DNA of 64,000 nt, taken from Spirochaetota bacterium (GTDB lineage: Bacteria; Spirochaetota; UBA6919; CBDBPB01). Shown piece by piece: positions 1 to 18,783 of the stretch (position 1 is the first letter of the stretch; each line of letters begins with the position of its first letter). The translations under genes were made by a program, and so were the position numbers. The stretch lies in assembly GCA_965208615.1 (NCBI GenBank), contig CBDBPB010000002.1, forward strand, positions 64,001 to 128,000. The letters are read 5' to 3'. The notes below the pieces were generated by a model. It saw nothing but the letters and a program-made list of their open reading frames with translations. It was not told the origin of the DNA and ran no database searches.

Positions 1-410
1 CAGTAAATCCTAATTTTATTTGGCTGTCTGGTAACACTAAACACTTATATATATATGTTTGGGGAGGGAATTATAATTATAAGATAGAATGTCACTTGCA
101 GGATTATATGGGCAATACTCATTCTATTCCTTTTGGAGACCTTAATTTTAAGGGTTGGAGAAAAATGCGAATATCTATACCGTTTCATATTAAGCAAAAA
201 AGTAAATCACTTCCTAGTGTACGTCCACTAAAGTTTTTGAGGTTTAAAATAATTGCTGATCCTTATGAAAATCCTAGTGAATTTTATACATATTTTGATT
301 ACTTTCACGTGGTAACTGATATATATGAAGAAAGCTATGTAGGTGAAGAACTTCAGTTTGTTTACAACTATTGGGATAATGGAAATAAAAATCCTGCTCC
401 AAAAAAATGA
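1..410 (+). CDS. flaA: Flagellar filament outer layer (sheath) protein FlaA, 5' end outside window
   Basis: Frame is open from position 3. VWGGNYNY..., GDLNFKGWRKMRISIP and FYTYFD motifs are typical of spirochaete FlaA. Tandem with a second FlaA. Confidence 0.85.
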   Translation, partial: VNPNFIWLSGNTKHLYIYVWGGNYNYKIECHLQDYMGNTHSIPFGDLNFKGWRKMRISIPFHIKQKSKSLPSVRPLKFLRFKIIADPYENPSEFYTYFDYFHVVTDIYEESYVGEELQFVYNYWDNGNKNPAPKK

Positions 411-437
411 TAATGCAATCTATTTAAGGAGAGTTTT

Positions 438-1256
438 ATGAAAGTTAATAATACACTAATGTTATCAATACTAATTTTATTGGTTGGTTCTATTGGTAAC
501 GGGTTTGCTCAGGAGAAAACCACTGATAAAAAAGACAATAATAGAATTGACTTAAATCAAGATGATGAGTCAAAGACTGCTAAGGAACAGTTAGGTCCTG
601 ATGCGTCTAAGTCTCTTTACTTGATAACTGTGGATACATTTGAAGAAGTAGGCGAATGGACTATTAATATACCAGAAGATCAAGGTATTGCTACTACAAG
701 AAGAGTATTGGGAGCACCTCTTGCGCTTAAGAAGCAAGGTAAGAAAGAAGTAAAAGTACCTCCTAAGTACAGAAAGCCTGATGGAGTATATGAAAGAAAG
801 TATTATAGGCCATATACTGATAATAAGAAGTACATTTTAGGTGCAAAAGTTAATTTTTATAAACGGGGACATAATTGGTTCTCTATTCACCACAATAGGC
901 CTATTAGACTTGATGGAATAGTAAAGGCTTTTGAAGTATGGGTATGTGGTCGAGAAAAACAGCATACACTTTATATTATAGTTGAGGATCTTTTTGGAAA
1001 AGAATTGCTTATAAAAATGGATAAGCTTAACTTTTTGGGTTGGAAGCGATTAAAAGTAACTGTACCTCTTTATGTTGTTCAGGATAACTATCGTTTTACT
1101 AGTAAACGGGGACTTAAATTTAAAGGTTTTTTTATTAAAGTTGATCCATTAGAATCCTACGGAAAATATTATGTATATTTTGATAATCTTGTTGCAGAGG
1201 TTGATAGGTTTAAAGAAGAAAGTCGTAATGTAAGGGATCCGATAGACAACTGGTAA
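438..1256 (+). CDS. flaA: Flagellar filament outer layer protein FlaA (second paralog)
   Basis: Signal peptide; LGAKVNFYKRG, VWVCGR, LNFLGWKRL, DPLESYGKYYVYFDNL motifs; AGGAG RBS. Confidence 0.9.
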   Translation: MKVNNTLMLSILILLVGSIGNGFAQEKTTDKKDNNRIDLNQDDESKTAKEQLGPDASKSLYLITVDTFEEVGEWTINIPEDQGIATTRRVLGAPLALKKQGKKEVKVPPKYRKPDGVYERKYYRPYTDNKKYILGAKVNFYKRGHNWFSIHHNRPIRLDGIVKAFEVWVCGREKQHTLYIIVEDLFGKELLIKMDKLNFLGWKRLKVTVPLYVVQDNYRFTSKRGLKFKGFFIKVDPLESYGKYYVYFDNLVAEVDRFKEESRNVRDPIDNW

Positions 1257-1281
1257 GTTATATTAGTTATACAAAAAAATC

Positions 1282-1317
1282 AATAGTATGGGAATTTATC
1301 TCATACTATTTTTTTTA
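1282..1317 (+). terminator. Rho-independent terminator after flaA
   Basis: AATAGTATGGGA / TCTCATACTATT stem followed by a T-run. Confidence 0.7.
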
Positions 1318-1325
1318 TATATAGT

Positions 1326-2153
1326 TTGTTATTAATATTTTATATATTATTTTTAGTTAGTAGCAAAACACTTTTTTTACGAGGAATAATTATAGAAAAC
1401 AATCCCATAAAAATAAGAAAGATTATTAACAATCTAAAAGGTGTACTTAAAACAAGTTCTAATGAAACTCAGCGTATTCGTGTATATAAAGAAATTCAAA
1501 AGCTGGAAAAAGAACTTCTTAGCTTAGATTTAGAAGAAAGTTCGGATGATTCTCATTTGGACTATGATAATACATCCAATTCTATTAGCGAATACAAATA
1601 CTTAAAAGACATCGAAGTTTTGAAAGTTCCTTCTTCGGTTGACAATAGTGAAGCTAATGAGATTTATACTTTTTTAAAATACTTTGAAGAAGAATTTCTT
1701 GTTTTACTGAGTCCATACTATATTAAGTTAGGGCTAAACTACTCTATTACAAGAGAAACATTTTATACTGATATTTATAATTGTTATTCAGCTTTATACT
1801 TATACGTTGAGACATTAGAGAAAATAGCTAATGACAGCTTATTAGAAAACTATAAGATTAAGTTAAAGCTGGATTCTCAAAGTGAATACAGAAACTTATT
1901 TTCAAAGCTAAGCACTTTTTTACATAAGCTTTATAAGTTCACCTATGACCTAATTGAGAACTACGATACTGGCGGAAGACTTATTTTAAATGCGGATGAT
2001 ATACTTAAACTTGAAGTACCCTTAAAAGGAAAGATGCTTTTAAGGGATTATACAGTAATAGACGGATTTAGGTATTTATATGACTTTCTGACAGAGCTAA
2101 TTGATTATTTAAGACTACCTCGCATAGCAATAAACAATATATATATAAAATAA
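1326..2153 (+). CDS. Hypothetical helical protein (start uncertain)
   Basis: 275 aa ORF; resembles the C-terminal half of the 46704-48341 protein. Confidence 0.6.
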   Translation: MLLIFYILFLVSSKTLFLRGIIIENNPIKIRKIINNLKGVLKTSSNETQRIRVYKEIQKLEKELLSLDLEESSDDSHLDYDNTSNSISEYKYLKDIEVLKVPSSVDNSEANEIYTFLKYFEEEFLVLLSPYYIKLGLNYSITRETFYTDIYNCYSALYLYVETLEKIANDSLLENYKIKLKLDSQSEYRNLFSKLSTFLHKLYKFTYDLIENYDTGGRLILNADDILKLEVPLKGKMLLRDYTVIDGFRYLYDFLTELIDYLRLPRIAINNIYIK

Positions 2154-2159
2154 ATAGTA

Positions 2160-3410
2160 TTATATTTTTGATAAAGATTTAAAATCATTACCTGTAGGAT
2201 TTTGAAATACTTTTAGTTCAAACTTTGGTATGACTGCGAGAATGTGATCAAAGATATCCCCTTGAATGGATTCATAGTTAGCCCACTCCTGATCATTACT
2301 AAAAACGTATATTTCTATAGGCACTCCGTATTCTTTTGGAGCTAGTTGTCGTATAATAAATGTCATATCATTATGTATTTTTGGATGATTACTCAAATAT
2401 GATATTATATAAGCTCTTAGCACGCCGATATTAGTCATTTGTCTGCTACTAATATCTGGAGGCATAATATTATGGAGGTGATTATAGTTATCTATTTCAG
2501 TTTTTTTACTTTTTATATAGTTTTTTAGATAATGTATATTTTCAAATTCGTTTATCATCTTTTCAGAACAGAATTTTATACTATTTATATCGATATTTAT
2601 AGCTCTTTTAATACGTCTTCCCTCTGACTCACTCATACCTCGCCAATTTTTAAAGGAACCCATAACTAGGGAGTATACCGGAACAGAGGATATAGTTTTA
2701 TCCCAATTTTGGACTTTAACAGTGGTCAAAGATATATCGGTTACATTACCGTCGGCACCGTACTTTGGAACTTCTATCCAGTCACCGATGTGGATCATAT
2801 TATTGGATACTATCTGAAAGCCAGCTACTAGTCCTAGAATAGTATCCTTAAAGACCAATAATAATATAGCGGTCATTGCACCAATACTAGTTAATAGTAC
2901 TACAGGCGATTTACCAATTATGTTTGATATTATTAGTATAAAGGCGATAATGTATAAAAATATTTTAATTAGTTGTACATAGCTTTTTATGGGTCTTTCT
3001 TTAGAGACTTCGAAGTTTTGATAAATAGCAATTCCGGTATTTAGTATAGAGTTAATAGTTAGGACTATAAGAAAGATTATATAAATTATAACGAGGTCAT
3101 GTATCCAGTGGGTCATATCTGGTATAGAGTATGCGGCGAAGTATATAATTATAGCGGGGATTAATCTAACAAGGTGTTTAACGACTTTTTCTTTTAAGAG
3201 GAGGTCATCCCATTTAATTTTGGTTTTTTCTATGAATTTCTTCAACCTTACGAGTATAATTTTTTTTGATATTATACTGGATATATAGCCCAATAATAAT
3301 ATCATTATTATTAATAATACATAGCTTATATAGTAAGCCATATCATTGGACATATAGTTTTGTAATAGGGTTTGGGTATATTGTATTAGTCCATTTTGTT
3401 TATCGTTCAT
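2160..3410 (-). CDS. MscS-family mechanosensitive channel (YbdG/MscM-like)
   Basis: N-terminal TM helices; GDWIEVPKYGADG, TTVKVQNWDKTI, FKNWRGMSESEGRRIKR motifs. Confidence 0.92.
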   Translation of the reverse strand: MNDKQNGLIQYTQTLLQNYMSNDMAYYISYVLLIIMILLLGYISSIISKKIILVRLKKFIEKTKIKWDDLLLKEKVVKHLVRLIPAIIIYFAAYSIPDMTHWIHDLVIIYIIFLIVLTINSILNTGIAIYQNFEVSKERPIKSYVQLIKIFLYIIAFILIISNIIGKSPVVLLTSIGAMTAILLLVFKDTILGLVAGFQIVSNNMIHIGDWIEVPKYGADGNVTDISLTTVKVQNWDKTISSVPVYSLVMGSFKNWRGMSESEGRRIKRAINIDINSIKFCSEKMINEFENIHYLKNYIKSKKTEIDNYNHLHNIMPPDISSRQMTNIGVLRAYIISYLSNHPKIHNDMTFIIRQLAPKEYGVPIEIYVFSNDQEWANYESIQGDIFDHILAVIPKFELKVFQNPTGNDFKSLSKI

Positions 3411-3555
3411 ATATTTTCCTTTAATAATTGGTTGATATAAGCGTTGGTATTTTTAATTATAATCTTTAGAGTTAAGATAACATATTTAGTTATAAAAGTT
3501 AATAGTTTAAGTTATTTTTATTAGATTTTTTTTAAAAGTATTTTTAATCTATGAT

Positions 3556-4268
3556 ATTACTAATTGTTCTAGTAGTATAGTTCAAAAGTATTTTAAGTTA
3601 GTTTATCTTTTTAAAACTTTCTAAAATGCAGATAAAATTTATTTATTAGTTGTCTTATAATAATTTTTTATCTAAAAGCTATAGTAGTTAGTAACAGGGA
3701 GTATATCTTTTCTTTTTTATGGTTTAGTATAGCAGGCACTTCATCAAGTTTAGGTTATTGACAATGGGGATAAACATAAACATTTACGTTTAGACTTTGA
3801 GTCAGGGCTGGCAAGTATATTTATTTTTTTTGTTAAGGTGTAAGGCGAGTAGGGTTCTTTTTTTTTGATAATTTAGTTTATCTAGAGTGATATTATTTAA
3901 TAATTTAGTTATCATTTTATGATAGAGTTATAGCAAAGCGTATAAGGTAAAAAGTGAGACATATAACGTAAAGGGAAGTGAATTCCAGATTTCTTTATGG
4001 AACAGGAAAGTTAAAATATTATTGGAAAAGTTATTTTCTTGTGTCATAGGTGTTATCCTTATATGCGCTTAAAGTGCTGTTTAAATGATTCAGTAATAAA
4101 CACAAAAAGCACTTTTTATGCAAGTAGTCATCACTACGAGAGCTATTAAGAATCCCTTACTGAGACTAAGGATTATAGACCTTTATTAAGTGATGACGGA
4201 TTCGCCTTTCCATAAAGGCTTAGAGCGGATTATTTAAATATCGCATATTGACGTTATGTGTAAAACCT
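3556..4268 (+). repeat. Dispersed non-coding element copy 1 (leader + one ~145 bp unit + 303 nt structured core at 3959-4261)
   Basis: Clear homology to 16762-18660 (+), 24062-24575 (-) and 49901-51374 (-); invariant 36-mer at 4140-4175. Confidence 0.93.
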
Positions 4269-4607
4269 CCGCCGATTAATTGGAACCTTCTTATATCATA
4301 GAATGTCCAACTTCGCTGATATAAAAAATATTCCCAAAAAAACATTACTATATCCTGCTAATAAACTTCATAACTCAATACCCATTTAACCATATCAATA
4401 TCATAAAAAAGTTAATTTACTTGCCTTATATTAAAAATATATTATCTTTTTACGTTAGAATTAAAGTGTTGTACATTAATTTTTAATGCTTATCCTTTCA
4501 TATAATTCTTTATATAGTTAGAAGATATTAGAAGTCGATTATTATTTTTGTAGTTTTACATAGGATTAATTAAATATAATGTTTTATAAAATTGAGCAGG
4601 AGGTAGA

Positions 4608-6293
4608 ATGAGTGTATTTAAACACGATGTTTTAGTTGTGGGAGCAGGTTTAGCAGGTCAGAGGGCCGCTATTGAAGTAGGACGTTCAGGACTAGATGTT
4701 GCAATGATATCAAAGGTATATCCTGTTAGGAGTCACTCAAGTGCTGCACAGGGCGGTATTAATGCGGCTTTAAACGCTGATGACTCTATTGAGTCTCACA
4801 TATTTGATACGGTTAAGGGCAGTGATTATCTTGGCGATCAGGACTCAATAGAGACGTTTTGTAATGAGGCGCCTAATGATATTGTAGAGCTTGAGAATAT
4901 GGGTGTTCCATTTATGCGTCATCCTGATGGTAAGATAGGCAGTAGGCCTTTTGGTGGAGCCAGTTATCCAAGGGCATGTTTTATTGCTGATATTACTGGA
5001 CAGGCTATACTGCACGTTATGTACGAGCAGGTGGTAAAAGGTGGTTTTAAGGTATATGAGGAATGGTGGGTATCGTCATTGATAGTTGAGGATGGAAAGT
5101 GTGTTGGAGTTGTAGCTATAGACTTAAGGACTCAAGAATTACATGTAGTTCAGGCTAAGGCTGTGGTATTAGCTACTGGAGGCTATGGTCAGGTGTTTGC
5201 ACCTACTACTAACGCACTTATTAACACTGGTGATGGCATGAGTCATGCTTATCGTGCTGGCACTCCCCTTATGGATATGGAGATGGTACAGTTCCATCCA
5301 ACTTCATTAAAGAAGACTGGTCTTCTTTTGAGTGAGGCCGCAAGAGGTGAGGGTGGTTATTTAATCAACAAAAATGGTGAGCGATTTATGAAGAAGATTG
5401 CGCCTAATAAGATGGAGTTAGCATCAAGGGATGTGGTCTCAAGGGCTGAGCAGATTGAGATTAATGAGGGGCGTGGAGTTGATGGATGTGTTTTATTAGA
5501 TATGCGTCATTTGGGTGCTGATCTTATTATGTCAAAGTTAGCTCAAATCCGTGATTTAGGCATTACTTTTGCTGGAGTTGATATGATAGAGGAGCCTGTT
5601 CCTGTTAGACCAGGCATGCACTATATGATGGGGGGAATTAAGACTGATGTTAATGGTGCAACTTACATACCGGGATTATATGCGGCTGGTGAGTGTGCAT
5701 GTGTTACGGTTCATGGTGCCAATAGGTTAGGGGGTAATTCTCTTATGGAGGCTGTAACTTTTGGTCGTCGATCTGGTAAGGGTGCATTAGACTTTGTTAA
5801 AAAGCTAAGCACTGATCATAAGCAATTAACTCAGGATGCGGCTAGTAAGGATGCTGAGTTAATCAAGTCTTTATTGGATAGGCCTGATAAAGGGGTTTAT
5901 TCTGCTCAAATACAAGCTAAGATGGGTAGTCTTATGGTAGAGAAGGTTGGGGTATTTAGGCAAGAGAAGGTTTTAAAAGAGGCTAAAGAGGATATTAAGA
6001 ATTTAAAGGCTGAGTGGGAAAGTGCATCTATCAAGGATAAGGGTCAGCAGTTTAACACTGAGATTATTAGAACTTTAGAGCTTCGTAATATGCTTGACCT
6101 TGCTCAATGTACTGTTGAGGGTGCCATTATGAGAAATGAGAGTAGGGGTGCACATACACGTACTGATTTCCCAAATAGGAATGATAAGGATTGGGTAAAG
6201 CATATTTTATTTTATCATGAGGATAAAGGTCCTAAGCATGAGTTTTTACCTGTTACACTAACAAAGTGGGAATTACAAGAGAGGGTATATTGA
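4608..6293 (+). CDS. sdhA: Succinate dehydrogenase/fumarate reductase flavoprotein subunit
   Basis: GAGLAG FAD motif, RSHSSAAQGG, QFHPT, HYMMGG, HGANRLGGNSL. Confidence 0.95.
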   Translation: MSVFKHDVLVVGAGLAGQRAAIEVGRSGLDVAMISKVYPVRSHSSAAQGGINAALNADDSIESHIFDTVKGSDYLGDQDSIETFCNEAPNDIVELENMGVPFMRHPDGKIGSRPFGGASYPRACFIADITGQAILHVMYEQVVKGGFKVYEEWWVSSLIVEDGKCVGVVAIDLRTQELHVVQAKAVVLATGGYGQVFAPTTNALINTGDGMSHAYRAGTPLMDMEMVQFHPTSLKKTGLLLSEAARGEGGYLINKNGERFMKKIAPNKMELASRDVVSRAEQIEINEGRGVDGCVLLDMRHLGADLIMSKLAQIRDLGITFAGVDMIEEPVPVRPGMHYMMGGIKTDVNGATYIPGLYAAGECACVTVHGANRLGGNSLMEAVTFGRRSGKGALDFVKKLSTDHKQLTQDAASKDAELIKSLLDRPDKGVYSAQIQAKMGSLMVEKVGVFRQEKVLKEAKEDIKNLKAEWESASIKDKGQQFNTEIIRTLELRNMLDLAQCTVEGAIMRNESRGAHTRTDFPNRNDKDWVKHILFYHEDKGPKHEFLPVTLTKWELQERVY

Positions 6294-6295
6294 TT

Positions 6296-7243
6296 ATGGA
6301 GACAAAATTTAAGATTAAGCGTTTTGATCCTACAGAACAAAAGTCATACTATCAAACTTTTAATGTCACCACAGAGCCAGGAGATACAATTTTAGAGGCC
6401 CTTTTAACTATTCAGGGCAAACAGGATCAGACATTTGCTATGCGTTGTTCTTGTAAGAGTGCAATTTGCGGATCATGTGCTATGAAGGTAAATAAGCGTA
6501 CAAGGTTAGCTTGTAATACACAAATCCGTGATCTTGAGTTAATTAATGGTGAGATACTTGTTGAGCCTATGGGTAATATGCCTGTTATTCGTGATCTCAT
6601 TGTTGAGTTAGAGATGCACTGGGAAAAATTAAGGGGTATTGATCCATTTTTGAAGGTTAATAAGCCTCCTGATGAGAGAGAATATCTTTGTTCTAATGAG
6701 TCTATGGTTCACGTATCACATGTTACTGAGTGTATACAGTGTGCATCTTGTGTATCTGACTGTACTGTACTCGAGGTGGATAAGAGTTTTCGTGGACCTG
6801 CGGCATTGGCTAAGGTATATAGGTTTGTGTCTGACCCTAGGGATACTAATGATAAGCATAGACTAACCCAGGCGTCAAAGAGCTCAGAGATGTGGGACTG
6901 CACTCATTGTTTTAAGTGTGTAGAGGCTTGTCCTAAGCTAACAAGACCTATGGAGCGTATTTTAGCTCTTAGAAAGACTGCTATGAAAAAAGGCTATCGT
7001 AATAATTGCGGTTCAAGGCATTCTTATGCTATTTTGGATTCTATAAAACATAGTGGTACTCTTAATGAGAATACTGTAATGCCAAAGTCTTTTGGATATT
7101 TAAACATACCAAAGTTATTATCCATTGTTCCTGTAGGGCTTAGAATGGCGTCGGCTGGCAAGCTACCTCCTTTAATACATAAGAAGATTGGCAGTATAAA
7201 GAAGGTGCAAAAGATATTTGATAAATTAGAAAGGGAAAATTAG
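6296..7243 (+). CDS. sdhB: Succinate dehydrogenase iron-sulfur subunit with C-terminal extension
   Basis: SCKSAICGSC, CIQCASCVSDC and CTHCFKCVEAC Fe-S motifs; likely ATG at 6296. Confidence 0.93.
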   Translation: METKFKIKRFDPTEQKSYYQTFNVTTEPGDTILEALLTIQGKQDQTFAMRCSCKSAICGSCAMKVNKRTRLACNTQIRDLELINGEILVEPMGNMPVIRDLIVELEMHWEKLRGIDPFLKVNKPPDEREYLCSNESMVHVSHVTECIQCASCVSDCTVLEVDKSFRGPAALAKVYRFVSDPRDTNDKHRLTQASKSSEMWDCTHCFKCVEACPKLTRPMERILALRKTAMKKGYRNNCGSRHSYAILDSIKHSGTLNENTVMPKSFGYLNIPKLLSIVPVGLRMASAGKLPPLIHKKIGSIKKVQKIFDKLEREN

Positions 7244-7253
7244 GAGGGTTTGA

Positions 7254-8105
7254 ATGAGATACGCTTTTTATCCTGGTTGTGTTGCTAAAGGGGCATGCCC
7301 TGAGTTAAAACTATCCGCTGAGAATGTTAGTAGTAAGCTTGGCATTGATCTTGCTGAGTTGACTGAGGCAACTTGTACTGGTGCTGGTATTATGAGTGAG
7401 CATGATCAAGAGTTAGGGGATACCCTTAATGCAAGAACTTTTGCTATGGCTGAGAAGTTAGACATTCCTCTTATGAATATTTGTAGTACTTGTCAGGGGG
7501 GTATGAGTCATAGTAATTATAGATTGAATAATGAGTCTGGCTTATTGGATAAAGTTAATGAGACTCTTGCTAATGAGGGGCTTAAATATAGTGGTAATTT
7601 ATCCATTAAGAACTTCATGTGGGTTCTTATAGAAGACTTTGGCTTGGATAAGTTAAAGTCTATGATTAAAAAGCCTCTTACTGGTCTTAAGGTAGCTCCT
7701 TTTTATGGGTGTTATATTTTAAGACCATCGTGGGAGCTTGGGATTGATGAGAATAGAGATAGGGCACATTATTTAGAGTATCTTATTGAGGCATGTGGTG
7801 CAAGTCCTGTTGATTATGAGGGTAGGGATAAGTGTTGTGGCTTTCCAATTCAGGCTATGAATGGTAAGAACTCAAAGGCTATGGCTAAGAATCACGTTCA
7901 AGAGGCGGCTGAGAAGGGTGCTGATTGTATGGTTACGCCATGTCCTCTTTGTCATTTGCAGTTGGATGCTAATCAACCTGACTATACCAATGTGAAGTTA
8001 CCTATACTACACTTACCTCAGATGATTGGTTTAGCTATTGGTCTTTCTGCTAAAGAGTTAGGGTTAGATAAGAACATTATTAAAGCAAATAAGGTTTTGG
8101 TATAA
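7254..8105 (+). CDS. HdrB-like CCG-domain anchor subunit of non-classical succinate dehydrogenase
   Basis: YAFYPGC, APFYGC, KCCGF, TPCPLCH motifs; directly after sdhB. Confidence 0.88.
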   Translation: MRYAFYPGCVAKGACPELKLSAENVSSKLGIDLAELTEATCTGAGIMSEHDQELGDTLNARTFAMAEKLDIPLMNICSTCQGGMSHSNYRLNNESGLLDKVNETLANEGLKYSGNLSIKNFMWVLIEDFGLDKLKSMIKKPLTGLKVAPFYGCYILRPSWELGIDENRDRAHYLEYLIEACGASPVDYEGRDKCCGFPIQAMNGKNSKAMAKNHVQEAAEKGADCMVTPCPLCHLQLDANQPDYTNVKLPILHLPQMIGLAIGLSAKELGLDKNIIKANKVLV

Positions 8106-8116
8106 ATAGATAGTGC

Positions 8117-9499
8117 TTATTTATTGGGGCTAGTATCGTTGATTATTTTTATAATCGACTGTATTAGCTCTTTTATGTGGGGGTCACGTTCTTTTTTTAG
8201 TCTTATCTTTAACAGCGGCACTTTTGCTTCATATTTGCTTTTGAACAGTGAGTAAATGGCATTAGTTCTTATTAGTTTATTGGGATGATTTATAAGATAG
8301 TTAATTTGTTGTTTATTCTTTGGAAAAGCTTCTCTTTGGGATAGTATTAATGGGTTTTTGTTAAAGAACTTTTTATTAGACTCTATGGCATTGGGATTGT
8401 TTTTTAGGAATATTAATAAGGGTTTCATTGATTTTTTGCTATAGTAGTTTATAATTAATTCTGGTAATATATTACTACATTTTAGTTTAGCCAATGATAT
8501 TAAGGATATTCTTTTTAGGTTTTTTTGATAGGTAATTAGGGTATTTGCTTTATTTAGGTTTTGGTAGTAGTTTTTTAGTGGTTTACAGTTATTATTACTG
8601 CCTATTTCTCCTAGTAGTTTTACAGCTTTAAATTGGATTTTTGGATTTATATCTTTTAGTGCTAATTTTAAGACTTTCACTCTATTTTCTTTGATGTTTT
8701 TAATTTTATTTGGGTTTTCTTCGTTATAGTGTTTAAAGTAGGTTTCAGCTTTATAAGAGGCGTTATAGTTATTGCTCCCTATGTCCGCAAGTTTATTCAT
8801 GAGTACGTTATCAAATAGCTTAATATATTTATTGTTGTTATTCATTATATATAGGGCTTTTTTGACACTTCTTGTTAGTCTTTTATCTTTTACTTCTGCA
8901 TTTAGTTTTATTAGGGTATTTTTTATATATTCGTTTTTATATTTGTCCCCTAATAGAGCGGTTGTGATAATTACTTCGTCATAGAGGGCGGTTTTATCTT
9001 GGACATGCTTTATTAATATAGGATATGAGGGTTTATAATTTGTTAGTCCTATTGTGATAGAGGCTTTTTTTATACTATCTTCTAATTTGGATATTTTTAA
9101 TATATTATGGGCGATTTTAGCATATTTAGTTTTATTTTTTATTGGATAGTTATTTTTTAGCAGTGTATTTATTATTTCTAGTCCACAGTTTTTGATTACT
9201 TCTTTATTGCTTTTGAGAAGGCTTAAGGCATATATCAGTATATTTTTATTCATAATTAGGGCAAGTGATCTGCTGGATAAATATCGTTCCAATGGTATAT
9301 GATTTTGCTTATGGATTATTTGTTTTAGTTTGGGTATAAATTGTATAAGCTTATGTTCAGCGATTAGGTGTATAGCTTTCCGTCTATGGACCTCGTTTTT
9401 AGATATGAGTAGTTGTTTTATGTTATCAGAAAGGTTTTTTGTTGTTACTTGGCAAAACTGGATAAGTATTATTATTAAGAAGGTTATTAATTTTTTCAA
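8117..9499 (-). CDS. Exported HEAT-repeat protein
   Basis: Signal-like N-terminus; HEAT-like segments such as LALKDINPKIQFKAVKLLGEIG and LINHPNKLIRTNAIYSL. Confidence 0.65.
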   Translation of the reverse strand: MKKLITFLIIILIQFCQVTTKNLSDNIKQLLISKNEVHRRKAIHLIAEHKLIQFIPKLKQIIHKQNHIPLERYLSSRSLALIMNKNILIYALSLLKSNKEVIKNCGLEIINTLLKNNYPIKNKTKYAKIAHNILKISKLEDSIKKASITIGLTNYKPSYPILIKHVQDKTALYDEVIITTALLGDKYKNEYIKNTLIKLNAEVKDKRLTRSVKKALYIMNNNNKYIKLFDNVLMNKLADIGSNNYNASYKAETYFKHYNEENPNKIKNIKENRVKVLKLALKDINPKIQFKAVKLLGEIGSNNNCKPLKNYYQNLNKANTLITYQKNLKRISLISLAKLKCSNILPELIINYYSKKSMKPLLIFLKNNPNAIESNKKFFNKNPLILSQREAFPKNKQQINYLINHPNKLIRTNAIYSLFKSKYEAKVPLLKIRLKKERDPHIKELIQSIIKIINDTSPNK

Positions 9500-9849
9500 G
9501 TTTTCTAACTTAGTCTATGATCTACCTTTCAGAATACCAGTTAAATATACTTAATATAAAATAATATTTATTATCCTAAAGACAATAAGAATAAGATGTA
9601 ATTTTTATTACATAAAAACAGGCATTAATCCATAATGCCTTATATTCTATTGTCTATAAGTCATTAGCATTTAATCTGTATATTAATATAGGAGTATATT
9701 TTGTTCGGAATTTTTTTTATGCAACTTTAATAAAATAGTTGACGAAAACTAAAAATTTAGATACCGTTTTAATTAAAAGTATGTTATTTATTATTTCTTT
9801 TTGATAAAGAAGAGATTCTTAATATTTAGAATTAGATACTTTCTCTTCT

Positions 9850-9936
9850 ACGGAGGTAGCGATAAAAAGAACCTTAACCAAATAGGGATATGGGAACGGT
9901 TCTTTAATATAAATAATTACCCACGGAGGGACGTTT
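9850..9936 (+). promoter_or_regulatory. Flagellin leader with multiple ANGGA (CsrA-type) motifs and a stem
   Basis: ACGGA 9850, AGGGA 9884, ACGGAGGGA 9923 overlapping the RBS; AAAGAACC/GGTTCTTT stem at 9866-9905. Confidence 0.45.
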
Positions 9937-10923
9937 ATGATTATTAACCACAACATTAGTGCTCTATATGCAGAGCGGATGTTTAGCCTCAATAGTGCTA
10001 GTCAATCCAAAAACATTGAGAAGTTGTCAAGTGGAATGCGAATTAACAGGGCTTCTGATGATTCAGCGGGATTAGCAGTATCAGAAAAGATGAGATCTCA
10101 AATTAGGGGTCTTAACATGGCCAGTAAGAATATTCAGTCTGGTATTTCTTTTATTCAGACTGCTGAAGGCTGGCTACAAGAAACAACTATGATTTTGCAG
10201 AGAATGAGAGAGTTAGCAGTGCAATCGTCTAATGGTATTTATACCAGAGAAGATCGACTTCAGATTCAGACTGAGATAAGACAGTTAGTTGATGAAGTAG
10301 ATAGAATTTCGTCTCAGGCAGAGTATAACGGTCTTAAACTTCTTAAGGGAGGGTTTAGAAGTGCTGATAGTGAAAAAGCTCAACCGCCTGCTGATGAAAA
10401 AGCTACTGCTAACTCTGCTCAAAGGCCTATTCAAGCAGTTAAACAAGGAGATTTATCTCAACAGCATACTCTTGTGAATGACGGTGGTGGAGTAGCTATT
10501 CATCTTGGTCCTAATATGGATCAAAGAGAAAAAGTTTATATAGGTAATATGTCATCTGCGGCATTAGGTTTATCTAAAGGTCCTGTAGCCACTGATGGTA
10601 AAAGAGAGCTGTCGGTTGATTATTTATCTCAGGATGGTGCAAATAAGGCAATTGGTACAATTGATAGTGCACTTTTTGTAGTAAATCGTCAAAGGGCAGA
10701 TTTAGGTGGTTACCAGGCTAGGTTAGAGACTGCAGATAAGGGAATAAACGTAGCGGCAGAAAATCTTCAAGCATCTGAGTCATATATTAGGGATACTAAT
10801 GTAGCAAAAGAGATGGTTAACTTTGTGAAGAATAAAATCTTAACGGAGACATCTGCCTCATTATTATCACAAGCTAATATGAAGCCTTATATTGTTGGAA
10901 GGCTTTTAGAATCTATTAAGTAA
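9937..10923 (+). CDS. flaB: Flagellin (filament core protein)
   Basis: [10 protein letters not shown] start, [42 protein letters not shown]. Confidence 0.95.
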
Positions 10924-10927
10924 TTTC

Positions 10928-10964
10928 ATATACCCTGTGGATAATTTCTATGGGGTATATTTTT
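10928..10964 (+). terminator. Rho-independent terminator after flaB
   Basis: ATATACCCTGTGGA / TCTATGGGGTATAT stem with G-T pairs, then a T-run. Confidence 0.65.
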
Positions 10965-11337
10965 GTAAATATAAAATAGGCATCCTAAGCTTATTAAAAA
11001 TAGTTTCTTTATAGTTCTGGTTATTATAGGGGATTATAAAAATAAAGATAACTACTTATTAAGGTAGCCTCAATAATCTTGGTAATAGAGAAAGCTAAAA
11101 TAGTAGATATAATAAACAAAAAGCTAAGACAAGAGGTTTTACAATTTAGTTAACTTACTTCACACAGATGCCATAATTAAATTATTATAATTTTGATAGG
11201 TACTTGCCTCTTAACGTGGTTGTAAATAGCTAGTTGGACTATCCTCACTTATAACATACTGTTATTTTTTTATAATTTTTTCCTTATTGAATCTAATAAT
11301 TATAATTTAAAATTTGTTTAACTAGGGTAAGTAGGCG

Positions 11338-12186
11338 TTGATAAAAATTGACGACCAACACATTAAGAAGTTGATTTCTAATTATCAAAAAACGTCAAAA
11401 GGGATTAGACAAATAATAGAGCTTATGGCTGAATATATTTATAATTATCCCAGACTAACTCATAAAGAGTCAGAAGATAGTTGTAGTGAGTTTTTTATAT
11501 ACTTTATTGAAAGACTGCCTAAATTATTAAATAGATATAAAATTAAAGATACCTTTTTTACAACATGGCTATTACTTGTTATTAGAAGGCACTATATCAA
11601 TTGGATAAAAAAGACAAATCGTGAAGAAATAAAATCAATACTATACGAAGATGACTTTATTTTTAATGCTGAGTTAAACAATGAAAGTGATTTGTGTTTA
11701 TTGGCTAACAAAAAGATAACTAAGGATAAGATAAGGGAGGCAATTAATTCACTACCTAAAAAAGTAAAGATTGTCATAAAACTTCATTATTTTGATTTTT
11801 TTGAAAGTGAGGATATATTAGAAATTAATAAGGTGTTTAAAAAGAATATTCATATATTGATTGATAAGTATAATAAAATTATAGTTAATTTTGCGGATCA
11901 CTATGATAAAGAAAAAAAGATATTGGATAAGATTAATTCTAACTTTGTAAGGTTTTCTAACTATGAAAATAATATTGAGAGTAGTGAAGATTTTAAGCTA
12001 AAAGCTAAATTAGATAAGGCTAAATTGAGGCATAAAAAGCTTATTGAGAGATATAGACGATCATATTTATCAGTTAAGAATGAAGATATTAGTGATTTAC
12101 TTGGTATTAGCACAAATGCTATTCACAATCATATTTTTAGAGGTAAGGTGCTAATTAAAAAAAAGTTATTGGGCGTAGTTTTGTGA
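11338..12186 (+). CDS. Sigma-70 family (ECF-like) sigma factor with an insert in region 4
   Basis: FTTWLLLVIRR (region 2), AINSLPKKVKIVIKLHY and EDISDLLGISTNAIHNHIFRGK (region 4). Confidence 0.75.
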   Translation: MIKIDDQHIKKLISNYQKTSKGIRQIIELMAEYIYNYPRLTHKESEDSCSEFFIYFIERLPKLLNRYKIKDTFFTTWLLLVIRRHYINWIKKTNREEIKSILYEDDFIFNAELNNESDLCLLANKKITKDKIREAINSLPKKVKIVIKLHYFDFFESEDILEINKVFKKNIHILIDKYNKIIVNFADHYDKEKKILDKINSNFVRFSNYENNIESSEDFKLKAKLDKAKLRHKKLIERYRRSYLSVKNEDISDLLGISTNAIHNHIFRGKVLIKKKLLGVVL

Positions 12187-12809
12187 TAATAGATGACTTA
12201 AATAAACTATTTCCGTTATGGGATAAGTATTTAGAGGGTAGGCTTAGTGATGCTGATAGAAAGAGTTTTGAAAAGAGGCTGAGTAGGAAAAAAGATCTTT
12301 TTAATTTTGTAATGCAGTTGAAAAAAGATATTGCTTTATTAGAGAGTCCCTTTTATGAGAGCGTACCAGAATCTTTATTAAAAAGAGTATTGAGGGGAAT
12401 AGATAAAGAGCGTTTATTAGAAAGTTGGGGTAATATAATACTCAAGGTTATTGATAGGGGTTTTCAGGTAATAGAAGATACATTTTCGCAAAACTTACCT
12501 AAAGCTGAGTTAGTTGCTTATAGGGATATTGAAAATAATTGTGAAAAGTTGATATTTAATCAGGATGAATTTAAAGTTACTTTTTTGCAGTTATCAAAAG
12601 CCAAGGTTAACATTGAGGTTACATTTGATAATTCTAATATGAAGTCAGAAAATGTTATTGTTTATTTAAAGACTATTTCAGAGGATAAGATGATTGCTTC
12701 TCTTAAGCCTGTTAAGAATAAGGTAGTTTTTAAGGCCCTACCTATAGCGGAATATAAGATTTCTATTTTAGAAAAGGATCTTAGTTTGAATTTGAATCCT
12801 CTTTCATGA
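12183..12809 (+). CDS. Putative anti-sigma factor / hypothetical protein
   Basis: Overlaps the sigma stop codon; N-terminal YLEGRLSDADRKSFEKRL resembles an anti-sigma domain. Confidence 0.55.
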   Translation: MIIDDLNKLFPLWDKYLEGRLSDADRKSFEKRLSRKKDLFNFVMQLKKDIALLESPFYESVPESLLKRVLRGIDKERLLESWGNIILKVIDRGFQVIEDTFSQNLPKAELVAYRDIENNCEKLIFNQDEFKVTFLQLSKAKVNIEVTFDNSNMKSENVIVYLKTISEDKMIASLKPVKNKVVFKALPIAEYKISILEKDLSLNLNPLS

Positions 12810-12837
12810 GGTAATAAGGAAAATAATCATTTTATGG

Positions 12838-13893
12838 TTAACTTTTAGGACTAACAGGTTTATTAAGTTTTTTTTGATTAGCATAATTTCGATATAATAT
12901 AACATTTTTGTTATGTTCTTTAATTGTTTCAGCGAAGTAATGATGTTTATCATCTTTTGCTACAAAGAATATATAGTTAGTTTTTTTTGGATTCATAGAG
13001 GCGAGAATGGCTTTTCTACTTGGATTAGCTATAGGACCTGGGGGTAGGCCTTTATACAGGTAGGTATTGTATGCTGAATTGATTTTCATATCTCCTTGTC
13101 TTGGATAAAGTTTACCTTTATACATATTTAGTCTTAGAAGGGCATATATTACAGTGGGATCACATTCTAGTCTCATATTTTTTTTTATTCTGTTGTGATA
13201 GACAGAGGAGACCAGTCTAAGTTCTTTTTCTACACCTGTTTCTTTTTCTATTAGGGATGCTATGGTAATAAGTTGATGTTTTGATAGGTTTATTTTAGTT
13301 TTATTACTTTCGAATTCTTTAGTGGGAAAGTTTTTTATATGTTCTTTAATCATTCTATTAGCTATTGACTTTATGGATTCGCCTTTTAGTATGAAATATC
13401 CAGCTGGATATAGGTATCCTTCAGCTGAGTCAGAAGGGATATTATATTTACTAAGAAAGTTTTTATTGGTTACCAGTTCGATAAAGTTTTTTTCTTCACT
13501 GATTATATTTTTTTCTTTAAAGAGTCTTGCTATATCATAGATGTTATAGCCTTCTGGAATAGTAATCAAGGTTTGATCAGATATAGCTTTTCCGTTTCTA
13601 ATTATGTTTAGTATTTTGCTGTTGGAGTAGTTAGTATTGAGTTTATATTTTCCTATATGTATTTTTTTATTATTGATGTGTTGTAGGGTTTGTCCGTAGT
13701 AATAGAAGAAGAGGTAATTTTTTATTAAGCTTTTTTTTTCCAATCTTTTGGAAATACTCATAAGTTTTTCGGCTTTATGGACTTTAAAGATAATTTCTTT
13801 ATTGGAGTTTATGGGGTTATTGAGGTAATAAAAGACAGCGCCTATTGAGGCGGATAAAAGTATTATAGTTATTATTAATTTTTTTAATTTCAT
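12838..13893 (-). CDS. mltG: Endolytic transglycosylase MltG
   Basis: ITIPEG, EGYLYP, IASLIEKE, LECDPT, YNTY..KGLPPGPIANP. Confidence 0.95.
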   Translation of the reverse strand: MKLKKLIITIILLSASIGAVFYYLNNPINSNKEIIFKVHKAEKLMSISKRLEKKSLIKNYLFFYYYGQTLQHINNKKIHIGKYKLNTNYSNSKILNIIRNGKAISDQTLITIPEGYNIYDIARLFKEKNIISEEKNFIELVTNKNFLSKYNIPSDSAEGYLYPAGYFILKGESIKSIANRMIKEHIKNFPTKEFESNKTKINLSKHQLITIASLIEKETGVEKELRLVSSVYHNRIKKNMRLECDPTVIYALLRLNMYKGKLYPRQGDMKINSAYNTYLYKGLPPGPIANPSRKAILASMNPKKTNYIFFVAKDDKHHYFAETIKEHNKNVILYRNYANQKKLNKPVSPKS

Positions 13894-14053
13894 TTTACCA
13901 TCCTAGATTTTTTATAGCAACGATAACGTATGGAAATTAGAAAGTTTAATTTATTTTTAAATATACTTTTTGATTTGGAAAAAGGTTATTTTTTTTATAA
14001 AAAGTTTAACACGGGGATTAATTAGATATTATTAGGCAAAGGTTATTATTTAT

Positions 14054-14536: not shown

Positions 14537-14726
14537 AAAACGACTTTTTGTTAAAAGCTATAGAATTAAAAATAAATTAACTTGTTCTATCACATATTAT
14601 AATGTTTATAGAAGGATAAGTCAAGTCTATTTATGCTATAACTGCTACTTATGCTACTTTGTTATAAAACCCATAAAAAAAGAGGAGCTATGCTCCCCTT
14701 AATTTTAACTGACTAAATAAATATAC
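14537..14726 (-). promoter_or_regulatory. Conserved paralog intergenic module: terminator (14675-14700) + sigma70 promoter TTGACT-N17-TATAAT (14596-14624)
   Basis: Near-identical to 54190-54427; partial copies at 26525-26666, 55802-55912 and 18716-18778. Confidence 0.8.
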
Positions 14727-16667: not shown

Positions 16668-16683
16668 AATTAACTCCATAATT

Positions 16684-16761: not shown

Positions 16762-18660
16762 TATTACTAATTGCTCTAGTAGTGTAGTTCAAAAGTATTT
16801 TAAGTTAGTTTATCTTTTTAAAACTTTCTAAAATGCAGATAAAATTTATTTATTAATTGTGTTATAATAATTTTTTATCTAAAAGCTATAGTAATTAGTA
16901 ACAGGGAGTATATCTTTTATTTTTTATGGTTTAGTATAAGAGGCCCTTATCAAGTTGAGGTTGTTGACAATGGGGATAAGCGTTTACGTTTAGACTTTGA
17001 GTTAGGGCTGGCAGGTATATTTATTTTTCTGTTAAGGTTAGGGAGAGTATAGCTTTTTTTTAATATTATGTTATTTAAATGATAAGAGGCCCTTATCAAG
17101 TTGAGGTTGTTGACAATGGGGATAAGCGTTTACGTTTAGACTTTGAGTTAGGGCTGGCAGGTATATTTATTTTTCTGTTAAGGTTAGGGAGAGTATAGCT
17201 TTTTTTTAATATTATGTTATTTAAATGATAAGAGGCCCTTATCAAGTTGAGGTTGTTGACAATGGGGATAAGCGTTTACGTTTAGACTTTGAGTTAGGGC
17301 TGGCAGGTATATTTATTTTTCTGTTAAGGTTAGGGAGAGTATAGCTTTTTTTTAATATTATGTTATTTAAATGATAAGAGGCCCTTATCAAGTTGAGGTT
17401 GTTGACAATGGGGATAAGCGTTTACGTTTAGACTTTGAGTTAGGGCTGGCAGGTATATTTATTTTTTGTTAAGGTTAGGGAGAGTATAGCTTTTTTTTAA
17501 TATTATGTTATTTAAATGATAAGAGGCCCTTATCAAGTTGAGGTTGTTGACAATGGGGATAAGCGTTTACGTTTAGACTTTGAGTTAGGGCTGGCAGGTA
17601 TATTTATTTTTCTGTTAAGGTTAGGGAGAGTATAGCTTTTTTTTAATATTATGTTATTTAAATGATAAGAGGCCCTTATCAAGTTGAGGTTGTTGACAAT
17701 GGGGATAAGCGTTTACGTTTAGACTTTGAGTTAGGGCTGGCAGGTATATTTATTTTTCTGTTAAGGTTAGGGAGAGTATAGCTTTTTTTTTAATATTATG
17801 TTATTTAAATGATAAGAGGCCCTTATCAAGTTGAGGTTGTTGACAATGGGGATAAGCGTTTACGTTTAGACTTTGAGTTAGGGCTGGCAGGTATATTTAT
17901 TTTTTGTTAAGGTTAGGGAGAGTATAGCTTTTTTTTTAATATTATGTTATTTAAATGATAAGAGGCCCTTATCAAGTTGAGGTTGTTGACAATGGGGATA
18001 AGCGTTTACGTTTAGACTTTGAGTTAGGGCTGGCAGGTATATTTATTTTTTGTTAAGGTTAGGGAGAGTATAGCTTTTTTTTAATATTATGTTATTTAAA
18101 TGATAAGAGGCCCTTATCAAGTTGAGGTTGTTGACAATGGGGATAAGCGTTTACGTTTAGACTTTGAGTTAGGGCTGGCAGGTATATTTATTTTTCTGTT
18201 AAAGTTAAAGGGATATTATTTAATAATTCAGTTGTCATTTTATGACAAAGTTATGACGAGGGATACAAGGCAAAAGGAAGACATATAACGTAAAGGCAGA
18301 TAGATTTTAGATTCCTTTGTGGAACAGGAAAGTTAAGATATTCATGGAAAAGTTATTTTCCTATGTCAAGCAGGTTATCTCTACATGCTCTTTAAGTGCT
18401 GCTTAAATGCCTTAGTAATTAACACAAAATATCACTTTTTATGCAAGTAGTCATCATTACGGGAGCTATTAAGAATCCCTTACTGAGACTAAGGATTAGA
18501 GACCCTTATTAAGTGTTAACGGATTCGCCTTTCCATAAAGGCGTAGAGCAGATTATTTAAATATTACATGTTGACGTTATGTGTAAAACCTCGAAAAGTA
18601 TACCTAATCCTCTATGATAAATAACAATCATAAAAAGTAAACTACTAAAACCTTCACTAA
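16762..18660 (+). repeat. Dispersed non-coding element copy 2 (leader + tandem array + 304 nt core at 18281-18584)
   Basis: Homologous to copies 1, 3 and 4. Confidence 0.93.
16936..18202 (+). repeat. Tandem array of ~146 bp units (8 full + 1 partial)
   Basis: Unit starts at 16936, 17082, 17228, 17374, 17519, 17665, 17812, 17958 and 18103; units differ only by 1 bp indels in T-runs. Confidence 0.97.
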
Positions 18661-18783
18661 CAAAATCGCCCGATAAAACCTTTTTTGTTATATTTGCTAA
18701 AACGTTTGTTAACGCCTATAACTGCTACTTATGCTACTTTGTTATAAAACTCGTAAAAAAATGCTCCTCTTGATTTTAGAAAG

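Follow-up and report, generated by a model that had tools for sequence, protein, structure and literature searches.

Bacterial MITEs, such as Correia in Neisseria, QMITE1/2 in Coxiella and Chunjie in Geobacter, are described as AT-rich, intergenic, multicopy sequences, typically smaller than 500 bp, that carry terminal inverted repeats (TIRs) of ~4–30 bp and direct repeats that wane with age, and that give rise to truncated derivatives (PMC10969869). BrickBuilt of Porphyromonas gingivalis is a composite MITE that, according to its published description, is species-restricted, always intergenic and present in ~19 copies per genome, with a 'leader' and a 'tail' that have small inverted-repeat ends, a variable internal tandem repeat and experimentally demonstrated promoter activity (PMC4596501). 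The element analysed here resembles BrickBuilt in being modular, MITE-like, intergenic and host-restricted, a likeness at the level of description. Other non-coding systems offer partial parallels. IS200/IS605-derived palindromic elements and REP/RAYT are much shorter than the present element, are not known to have terminal inverted repeats and require a Y1 transposase (TnpA or RAYT). The LDR and QUAD/Sib repeats of E. coli, which are ~0.15–0.5 kb in length and dispersed or tandem, were likewise first seen as non-coding and later proved to be type I toxin–antitoxin loci with a small hydrophobic ORF and an antisense RNA. OLE, ROOL, GOLLD, raiA and HEARO are large structured bacterial ncRNAs, and the present core shares with them the ~300 nt size class, the non-coding character and, in one copy, a long-range closing helix.

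The original prediction described a four-copy, ~304-nt non-coding core in the window, that is, the 64,000-nucleotide stretch of Spirochaetota DNA under analysis. All four cores are real and their positions and strands were confirmed (Table 1), as were their lengths of 303 nt in copy 1 and 304 nt in copies 2–4, but they belong to a larger family: in the whole 2.46 Mb genome (nine contigs, GC ~31%, completeness 99.4%) we found 40 near-full copies together with 24 partial BLAST matches. Element-like sequence amounts to 50,568 bases, or 2.06% of the genome. Each of the 40 near-full copies is intergenic, lying between ORFs of at least 90 amino acids; the setting is tandem for 23 copies, divergent for 13, convergent for 3 and a contig end for 1, and both orientations occur. 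The core was also thought to point away from the neighbouring gene, whereas orientation with respect to the neighbours is mixed across the 40 copies. Module boundaries are frequent end points of the fragments. All BLAST matches are collinear, and none of the 40 cores is inverted relative to its own 5′ and 3′ modules.

A full-length copy is ~0.65–0.75 kb in length and comprises a 5′ module of ~290 nt, the 304-nt core and a 3′ module of ~100–150 nt. Similarity among copies ends at sharp, common end points. The left end of the element is TTGTTACTAATTGTTTTAGTAGTG, and the 3′ module terminates in CTAAAACGTTTGTTAAC(AA), an imperfect inverted copy of the left end. In an in-register shuffle test, the left end was compared with the reverse-complemented right ends and agreed with the inner one at 19 of 24 positions, which was reached by 5 of 100,000 shuffles, and with the outer one at 16 of 24 (39 of 100,000); an earlier test of these repeats by local alignment against shuffles gave no information, its score being reached by 1,031 of 2,000 shuffles. 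The terminal motif is recognisable at the left end in 21 and at the right end in 14 of the 40 copies, and none is recognisable in copy 3. Ten copies, in which both ends could be placed and the left flank does not fall within an array, were evaluable for a target-site duplication, and by eye a flanking direct repeat (6 nt) was present in one of them. The 5′ module is tandemly amplified in 17 of the 40 copies, with array units that begin at or near the left end and with a period (74–318 nt) and a junction that differ per locus. Copy 1 is without a 3′ module, its similarity to the other copies ending ~8 nt past the core, while copy 3 has a 5′ block of ~124 nt (towards 24578) and a 3′ module of ~100 nt (towards 24051). 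We found no support for the core being a more recent MITE of 304 nt that lies inside an older repeat; the end of the 5′ block lay within 40 nt of the start of a 3′ module in 0 of 63 cases and ~305 nt away in 42. Upstream of the copy at C7:24173, a 1.1 kb repeated stretch considered as a possible IS is an internally repetitive gene, the repeats of which we take, by eye, to be ankyrin-like. No tRNA or tmRNA was found in the window.

Table 1. Parts of the four copies and associated repeats in the window (window positions).
Feature	Position	Strand	Basis or remark
Copy 1 5′ module	3556-3958	+	left-end motif match, repeat family, alignment
Copy 1 left terminal motif	3556-3577 (= C2:67556-67577)	+	left-end motif match
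Copy 1 single amplifiable-repeat unit	~3776-3837	+	repeat family D11
Copy 1 well-kept 75-nt block	directly 5′ of core	+	alignment
Copy 1 core, 303 nt	3959-4261	+	best-folding copy; atypical
Solitary fragment resembling 5′-module unit	14715-14788	-	family D17; at 3′ end of PMP-repeat gene 14727-16679
Copy 2 5′ part	16763-18280	+	left terminal motif, tandem array, last 5′ block to core
Copy 2 left terminal motif	16763-16784	+	motif match
Copy 2 array (146-nt units, 8.7 units, 99% matches)	16936-18207	+	families D1, D11
Copy 2 core, 304 nt	18281-18584	+	alignment
Copy 2 3′ module	18585-18713	+	right terminal motif GCTAAAACGTTTGTTAAC at 18696-18713
Copy 3	24051-24578	-	core 304 nt at 24151-24454
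109-nt tandem repeat (2.3 units, 96% matches)	49903-50151		abuts 3′ side of copy 4
Copy 4	50056-51374	-	core 304 nt at 50160-50463; 3′ module towards 50056
Copy 4 5′ array (144-nt units, 5.8 units, 92% matches)	50532-51374	-	families D2, D17

Over the 40 copies the core is 304 nt long in 34, 303 nt in 5 and 313 nt in 1. The notion of a 304-nt unit is thus correct as regards the constraint on length, but the conserved block extends beyond it, by ~75–100 nt upstream in each of the four window copies and by ~100 nt past the 3′ edge in window copies 2–4. Similarity among the cores is far above chance, with a mean pairwise identity of 0.888 and a gap fraction of 0.001 (304 columns, 40 copies), as compared with 0.735 and 0.068 for the adjacent 75 nt and 0.588 and 0.109 for the 3′ 100 nt. 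This difference between core and flanks points to either a constraint on the core or conversion that is limited to it. The inverted repeats named in the original prediction are present in the window cores, namely the 11-nt closing repeat ACATATAACGT / ACGTTATGTGT, the nested pair CTTTRTGGAA / TTCCATAAAG (3993-4002 with 4208-4217 in copy 1) and the inner stems ACAGGAAA, GTCATCACT and AATCC(C)TTA, and they correspond to the minimum-energy fold of copy 1. No conserved ORF had been seen, and the larger family bears this out: every one of the 40 cores has at least two stops in each of the six frames, the longest open stretch in any core is 63 amino acids, and variation across the 40 copies has no 3-base periodicity. 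Of the candidate small ORFs in the core, the best is preserved in 32 of the 40 copies and is least variable at codon position 3. In the 5′ module, a small ORF of ~40 codons (MKEVFDNGD...) is open in only ~8 of the 40 copies, with codon-position variabilities of 0.231, 0.209 and 0.198, which show no bias, and with region lengths that are not multiples of 3. Unlike in LDR and QUAD/Sib, then, neither the 5′ module nor the core has a small ORF that is maintained, and we rejected a type I toxin–antitoxin repeat.

Among the genomes searched, the element is restricted to this one. It was found by BLAST in none of 40 relatives, by a sequence-only profile in none of 150 genomes of the phylum and by two degenerate patterns in no metagenome contig (0 and 0), and blastn of the full element against plasmids and phages gave no match. 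A 19-mer scan of genome contigs returned 11 matches, none of them similar beyond ~24 nt and hence attributable to chance. No other genome in the search set belongs to the family or genus of the host. Searches of the genome for Y1_Tnp, TnpB, IS110, RVT_1, DDE_Tnp_1, rve, DDE_3 and Resolvase gave no matches, and of these the Y1_Tnp, TnpB zinc-ribbon, IS110 DEDD and RVT_1 searches were positive in 3–8 of 14 control genomes (PF01797, Y1 HUH, in 6). Y1 transposase, IS110 and reverse transcriptase genes had been proposed as partners of the element; with no match to these or to TnpB in the genome, the proposed ssDNA-transposon partners are removed. There is no dispersed multicopy protein gene in the genome, and the tyrosine recombinases that it encodes number just two, XerD and a XerC-like protein. 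An integron attC site, which had also been raised, does not fit: the elements are scattered and not arranged around cassettes, and integron-integrase models scored 127.6 and 132.4 bits on the two tyrosine recombinases, far below the cut-off of 265. A Xer/dif module was rejected as well: in a crude test, a short dif-like pattern occurred at 15 places in the genome and in none of the 40 elements.

We also compared copy 1 with sequencing contigs X1–X3, which derive from three runs of one study. Over window positions 1-14000 the flanks in X1 contigs show 0 differences, and the contigs stop at 3607 and resume at ~4205, a break of short-read contigs that a dispersed MITE-like family would explain. 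No contig of X1–X3 joins across copy 1 as an empty site would. Summed word depth is 231.8 over 3737-4203 and 5.51 in the flanks, a difference that is in line with many copies and is not to be read as a copy number. The PMP gene at window position 24749 and its paralogue at C1:101335 have only ~97 nt of upstream sequence in common, and so provide no clean insertion boundary; nor did any of the related genomes searched offer a syntenic site that could be used.

Polymorphism among the copies is mosaic. There are 2.15 private substitutions per copy and none at all in 17 of the 40 copies; 104 of the 157 variable columns are shared, and all four combinations occur in 1,929 of 3,321 informative site pairs (58%). 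We consider that the core is probably, at odds of little better than even (a probability of about 0.55), the central segment of a lineage-specific, non-coding, non-autonomous, MITE-like dispersed repeat that exchanges sequence among its copies. Where the original prediction left a choice between a transcribed, folded RNA and a recombination or transposition substrate, the latter fits better. The element, if mobile, would have spread into intergenic DNA by transposition, with an enzyme that is perhaps no longer, or not recognisably, encoded. Its later evolution may have proceeded by exchange between copies, through gene conversion or recombination, together with truncation and with amplification of the 5′ module in tandem at individual loci. 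We infer that gene conversion is the homogenising force, and a present-day function of the element, if it has any, would likewise be a matter of inference from sequence. In common with MITEs as they are described, it is non-coding, AT-rich and strictly intergenic, has tens of copies, TIRs in the 4–30 bp range and many truncated derivatives, is limited in host range and is capable of forming stem-loops. It differs in its size of ~0.65–0.75 kb as against the typical <500 bp, and in that we found neither a consistent target-site duplication nor a cognate IS or transposase (eight families). Given that direct repeats wane with age, the missing target-site duplication is compatible with membership of this class (PMC10969869). 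Conservation is higher in the internal 304 nt than at the termini, a pattern opposite to the usual one in MITEs, and large arrays stand at one end. These features, the far better kept core, the one-sided arrays and the absence of visible target-site duplications, are not accounted for by the MITE-like reading. As regards BrickBuilt, its internal repeat is described as having a 23-nt unit, whereas the units here are 74–318 nt in length, are locus-specific and start at the left end or close to it, and its description contains no counterpart of a 304-nt core of invariant length.

The original prediction inferred a folded single-stranded molecule under selection, and this is not supported by the tests that had been named beforehand: it fails on covariation, and folding against shuffles is modest on either strand. 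For the copy-1 structure and 40 copies, the number of double-changed pairs was 9, compared with 7.1 ± 1.4 in shuffles (reached by 82 of 500), and the covariation score was 0.075 compared with 0.072 (reached by 39 of 500); of the 90 pairs in the copy-1 fold, 15 or more are non-standard in at least 27 of 39 distinct rows. The RNAalifold consensus fold is weak (−19 kcal/mol over 313 columns, with a covariation term of −2.25 kcal/mol). Copy 1, with a z-score of −3.71 against dinucleotide shuffles, is an outlier: at 25 shuffles for each core, median z is −1.13 on the plus strand (below −2 in 7 of 40) and −1.73 on the minus strand (below −2 in 13 of 40). The placement of G–U pairs had been taken to single out one strand as the folded one, an argument that fails because the lower raw energy of the plus strand is a composition effect; the minus strand folds as well or better. 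On the MITE-like reading, the inverted repeats of copy 1 are a DNA-level palindromic architecture on both strands and not a strand-specific RNA structure. It is in this light that we judge unlikely an expressed family of structured ncRNA genes of ~300 nt that act in trans, with a candidate promoter for each core either in the 75-nt upstream block or, for the minus strand, at the core's 3′ edge. In favour of such genes, the core is nearly fixed in length (303–304 nt in 39 of 40 copies) and far exceeds its flanks in conservation and in freedom from indels, and z is negative in 38 of 40 cores on the plus strand and in 36 of 40 on the minus strand, but the medians are small and show no strand preference. 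Helices 1, 3, 4, 9 and 10 of copy 1 have standard pairs in 89–97% of cells, yet they are kept by invariance and so give no information on structure. Copies 1 and 2 have a weak promoter-like site at the core's 3′ edge, on the minus strand (TTTACA and, after 16 nt, GATATT in copy 1 and AATATT in copy 2, with TG), but this is offset by the finding that such sites are not in excess over shuffles (5 versus 3.5 ± 2.0; 9 versus 8.0 ± 2.6) and that our scan found no terminator-like site. The prediction had assigned the core to no known RNA family, and Rfam 15 indeed gave no match at gathering score in the 64 kb window; in E-value mode on 3700-4500 there were only five chance-level matches (E 2.4–6.8). 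Unlike OLE, ROOL, GOLLD, raiA and HEARO, the core thus combines no Rfam match and no covariation with 40 diverged copies in a single genome and none in relatives, the 150 genomes of the phylum included, and mobile DNA is the better match for its copy number, its truncated fragments and the terminal inverted repeats.

It is conceivable, though we think it doubtful, that the core serves the host at the level of DNA, as a protein-binding or structure-forming cassette under selection (such as a regulatory or nucleoid site, a source of outward-facing promoters, or a hot spot for recombination or replication slippage) that seeds the adjacent arrays, often next to surface-protein genes. The contrast in conservation between core and flanks points this way, as do the 5′ arrays with a period and junction of their own at each locus, but arrays are not commoner at divergent 5′ neighbours, where 13 stand against 6 at co-directional ones and so mirror the overall 27 against 13. 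The 5′-side gene is divergent for 27 of the 40 copies, a marginal bias obtained from crude ORF calls (two-sided binomial p 0.038), and the left end lies 84–462 nt from the start codons of these genes; spacing between the element ends and neighbouring genes is variable, no constant value having been found. By motif count ~6 of the 40 copies adjoin PMP-repeat genes, and Pfam assigns Chlam_PMP to three window ORFs, but most copies are not beside surface-protein genes, and both the binding protein and the promoter activity are putative. Stated more broadly, the proposal that the core is a selected unit, and not the relic of a decaying transposon, in a genome that has lost all recognisable transposases, be it a new ~300-nt multicopy RNA class or a cis-acting DNA structure or protein platform, strikes us as improbable. 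Were the DNA-platform version true, the core would drive inter-copy exchange and give rise, next to itself, to macro-tandem arrays specific to each locus, in many cases close to genes of surface-protein or effector-like type, and would constitute a built-in generator of intergenic variation. We regard as highly improbable a remnant of an ssDNA transposon (IS200/IS605 type; PATE or REP-like), or an omega-RNA or bridge-RNA element end, that is acted on in trans. Like IS200/IS605-derived palindromic elements and REP/RAYT, the element is non-coding, palindromic and intergenic with no evident target-site duplication, and its core contains hairpin-capable inverted repeats; unlike in REP/RAYT, no Y1 transposase is encoded in the genome, and the searches for this enzyme, the TnpB zinc-ribbon, IS110 DEDD and RVT_1 were empty here while detecting their targets in control genomes. 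The element moreover has terminal inverted repeats, which to our knowledge IS200/IS605 ends do not, and is without a match in Rfam, which includes omega-RNA families such as HEARO. The chance is slighter still that the 11-nt inverted repeat flanks a promoter that can be switched by inversion, as in fimS or the Bacteroides invertons, and that controls adjacent surface-protein genes. That repeat does bound a segment of ~300 bp, and some copies lie upstream of PMP-repeat genes, but the core has a fixed orientation relative to its modules in all 40 copies, no serine invertase was found, the tyrosine recombinases are confined to the two Xer-type proteins, and surface-protein genes are not the neighbours of most copies.

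If the MITE-like reading holds, the element would be one more lineage-specific family of this kind and not a new principle, and it would be useful for the annotation of a deep-branching genome. What is of note is that 2% of the genome is filled by a repeat with no detectable transposase, that an internal 304 nt remains constant in length while the termini and modules drift and swap, and that nearly half of the copies carry large, locus-specific, one-sided tandem arrays. The family would then offer a tractable case of how non-autonomous repeats may persist, homogenise and reshape intergenic DNA after the loss of their transposase.

All four ~304-nt cores proposed for the window proved to lie where they had been placed (see table), and their alignment with 100-nt flanks gave a mean column identity of 87%. 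Also found were the inverted repeat of 11 nt that closes the core, the CTTTRTGGAA/TTCCATAAAG pair nested within it and the inner stems; together they make up the minimum-energy fold of copy 1. The conserved block extends beyond the core, however: all four window copies keep a further ~75-100 nt 5' of it, and copies 2-4 also keep ~100 nt 3' of it. Four is the correct count for the window, but the family in the genome is ten times larger. With window 3859-4420 as the BLAST query, the genome (2.46 Mb in 9 contigs, completeness 99.4%) gave 64 matches, 40 near-full over the core and 24 partial; the observation of the core family is both confirmed and enlarged. Most cores (34) measure 304 nt, while five have 303 nt and one has 313 nt. 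Element-like sequence amounts to 50,568 bases, or 2.06% of the genome.

The 40 loci, each taken with 2.5 kb flanks, were compared all against all, and the end points of similarity were sharp and common among copies. Similarity starts ~290 nt 5' of the core at (T)TGTTACTAATTGTT(T/C)TAGTAGTG; on the right it stops at an inner end, ACTAAAAC..TTGATAAC, about +99 after the core, or at an outer end, GCTAAAACGTTTGTTAAC, about +129 to +152. In register, 19 of 24 positions of the left end agree with the inner right end read as its reverse complement (5 of 100,000 shuffles reach 19), and 16 of 24 agree with the outer right end read in the same way (39 of 100,000 reach 16). Terminal motifs are recognisable on the left in 21 and on the right in 14 of the 40 copies, those lacking one being truncated or diverged. 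In ten copies both ends are defined and no array covers the left flank; inspection by eye revealed a flanking direct repeat (6 nt) in only one of them. The core is therefore part of a modular element, ~0.65-0.75 kb long, whose terminal inverted repeats are imperfect and which lacks a consistent target-site duplication. One truncated element on contig C7 adjoins a multi-gene segment duplicated elsewhere and may mark a rearrangement breakpoint.

Features in the window and on contigs C3, C4 and C7 of the same genome
Feature	Location	Strand	Description
Core copy 1	window 3959-4261	+	
Core copy 2	window 18281-18584	+	
Core copy 3	window 24151-24454	-	
Core copy 4	window 50160-50463	-	
Copy 2 array	window		146 nt x 8.7
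Copy 4 array	window		144 nt x 5.8
Chlam_PMP/POMP-repeat gene (beta-helix)	window 14727-16679	-	repeats ~75-78 nt (GGGMYN...F..N)
Chlam_PMP/POMP-repeat gene (beta-helix)	window 24749-26524	+	as above
Chlam_PMP/POMP-repeat gene (beta-helix)	window 54428-55801	+	as above
817-aa ORF	window 51736-54189	+	~47-aa (141 nt) repeats, conserved Cys positions; directly upstream of PMP-repeat gene
PMP-repeat-unit-like remnant	window ~18830-19030	-	short, no surrounding long ORF; between copy 2 and next gene
Truncated element	C7:424508-424829		5'-truncated: 3' half of core + right end
Duplicated multi-gene segment	C7:425-431 kb, C3:10.8-15.8 kb, C4:36.4-37.2 kb		adjoins truncated element
Repeat protein gene	C7:22461-23660	-	399 aa, ~33-aa repeats; adjoins element copy
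Array	C4:91068-92178		74-nt units, 15
Array	C4:131028-131917		74-nt units, 12

The core is much better kept than the remainder of its own element. Pairwise identity is 0.888 in the core (gap-versus-base fraction 0.001), 0.735 in the 75 nt before it (0.068), 0.588 in the 100 nt after it (0.109) and 0.42-0.51 in the outer 5' module (0.19-0.20), and the well-kept stretch is bounded by the 11-nt inverted repeat. A younger MITE (a non-autonomous transposable element) nested in an older repeat was considered and rejected: no core-less element exists, and none of 63 5'-block ends adjoins the start of the 3' module. Since nesting is not supported, the contrast would be due either to constraint on the core or to conversion that is restricted to it. 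Pairs of cores have identities of 0.806 to 1.000 (median 0.885). Private changes average 2.15 per copy, 17 of 40 copies having none, and variation is shared between copies at 104 of 157 variable columns. All four combinations occur at 1,929 of 3,321 informative site pairs (58%); either sequence passes between copies or individual sites mutate repeatedly.

Tandem arrays abut the 5' side of 17 of the 40 copies (periods 74-318 nt, 2-15 units, 86-100% matches) and the 3' side of three. Period and junction differ from array to array, and in several the unit runs from the left terminal motif, or from close to it, to a point in the 5' module that is specific to the locus. Each 74-nt unit of the two C4 arrays starts with this motif; these loci may represent a segmental duplication, as more than 1 kb of 5' flank is common to both.

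Every one of the 40 copies lies between ORFs of at least 90 aa, in either orientation, at 13 divergent, 23 tandem and 3 convergent sites and 1 contig end. Of the 5'-side genes, 27 of 40 are divergent (p 0.038), and of the 3'-side genes, 23 of 39 are co-directional (p 0.34); no constant spacing from element to neighbouring genes was found. Three window ORFs are Chlam_PMP by Pfam, and by motif count genes with such polymorphic membrane protein-like (PMP) repeats adjoin only ~6 of 40 copies, so the association seen in the window does not hold for the family generally. A leader or riboswitch is excluded on this account. Neither Pfam nor NCBIfam gave an autotransporter or other sorting domain in the three PMP-repeat ORFs, or any family for the 817-aa ORF; the remnant beyond copy 2 is probably a gene fragment. 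Repeats of the 399-aa C7 protein look ankyrin-like by eye, and within its gene they produce a BLAST coverage like that of a multicopy DNA element.

The absence of a conserved ORF from the cores was upheld: each of the 40 copies has at least two stops per frame, with TAA among the stops in all six frames, and the longest open stretch is 63 aa. Core variability by phase is 0.074, 0.085 and 0.068. The core's best small ORF has 20 codons; 32 of 40 copies keep it intact, and codon position 3 is its least variable. In the 5' module, a ~40-codon ORF (MKEVFDNGD...) was rejected as a small hydrophobic peptide, being open in only ~8 of 40 copies; its variability by codon position (0.231, 0.209, 0.198) shows no bias, and the region's lengths are not multiples of three.

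The evidence for a folded RNA fails once the 40 copies are considered. Copy 1 is an outlier of the family: its z is -3.71 for the plus strand, where none of 100 shuffles folded as well, and -2.77 for the minus strand. With 25 dinucleotide shuffles per copy, mean z was -1.29 (median -1.13; 7 of 40 below -2) on the plus strand and -1.77 (median -1.73; 13 of 40) on the minus strand. The G-U pairs had been taken to favour the plus strand, but its lower raw energy (-62.6 versus -58.1 kcal/mol) is matched by the shuffles (-56.6 versus -50.4) and is thus an effect of composition. The RNAalifold consensus reached only -19 kcal/mol over 313 columns (covariation term -2.25). When the copy-1 structure was projected onto the 40-copy alignment, 83.9% of cells could pair, with 9 two-sided-change pairs where shuffles gave 7.1 +/- 1.4 (9 or more in 82 of 500) and a covariation score of 0.075 against 0.072 (39 of 500 reach it). 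Of the 90 pairs, 15 or more are non-standard in at least 27 of 39 distinct rows, among them some members of two proposed stems, GTCATCACT/AGTGATGAC and that of the AATCC hairpin. Retention in 89-97% of cells was seen for helices 1, 3, 4, 9 and 10, almost entirely through invariance, and no Rfam family matched. On the grounds for refutation set out with the original prediction, a structured RNA is not supported; what remains of the fold is inverted repeats, equally present on both strands.

The mobile-DNA half of that interpretation is still plausible. The Y1, IS110 or RT partner genes that it envisaged are missing: searches for Y1_Tnp, TnpB zinc ribbon, IS110, RVT_1, DDE_Tnp_1, rve, DDE_3 and Resolvase, positive in 3-12 of 14 control genomes, gave no match in this genome. 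Its two Phage_integrase proteins score as XerD (337.3 bits, cut-off 329.6) and as a XerC-like protein (303.1 bits, below its cut-off of 335.15), and a crude dif-like pattern matched 0 of 40 elements. No dispersed protein family exceeds two copies at 70% identity or more. One repeat family makes up 2% of the genome, yet the genome gave no match to the eight Pfam families tested and has no dispersed multicopy protein gene. Among the genomes searched, no other belongs to the family or genus of this one, and the element was not found in 40 relatives (BLAST), in 150 genomes of the phylum (sequence profile) or in metagenome contigs, plasmids and phages; 11 matches in other genomes' contigs were chance 19-mers. 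It occurs in only three DNA runs, all of one study, whose contigs break at the element and yielded no empty site.

According to PMC10969869, prokaryotic MITEs are AT-rich, intergenic and multicopy, with terminal inverted repeats of 4-30 bp, many truncated copies and direct repeats that are lost with age. The element fits these features, but differs in size, in its missing target duplication and transposase, and in its inverted conservation pattern. The closest architecture described is BrickBuilt of Porphyromonas gingivalis, portrayed in PMC4596501 as a composite MITE that is confined to its species and to intergenic sites and has a leader, a tail and a minisatellite inside; it differs in repeat unit size and position and has no constant-length core. 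For each of four other readings (IS200/IS605, inverton, attC, type I toxin-antitoxin), a defining feature was tested and found to be missing. The strict conservation of the core leaves some probability for two further accounts: an expressed RNA family, which seems unlikely, and a DNA-level host function, to which we attach a similarly small likelihood. The best explanation, with a probability of roughly 0.55, is a lineage-specific MITE-like repeat family whose copies would now change through exchange with one another, and would also be shaped by local tandem amplification.
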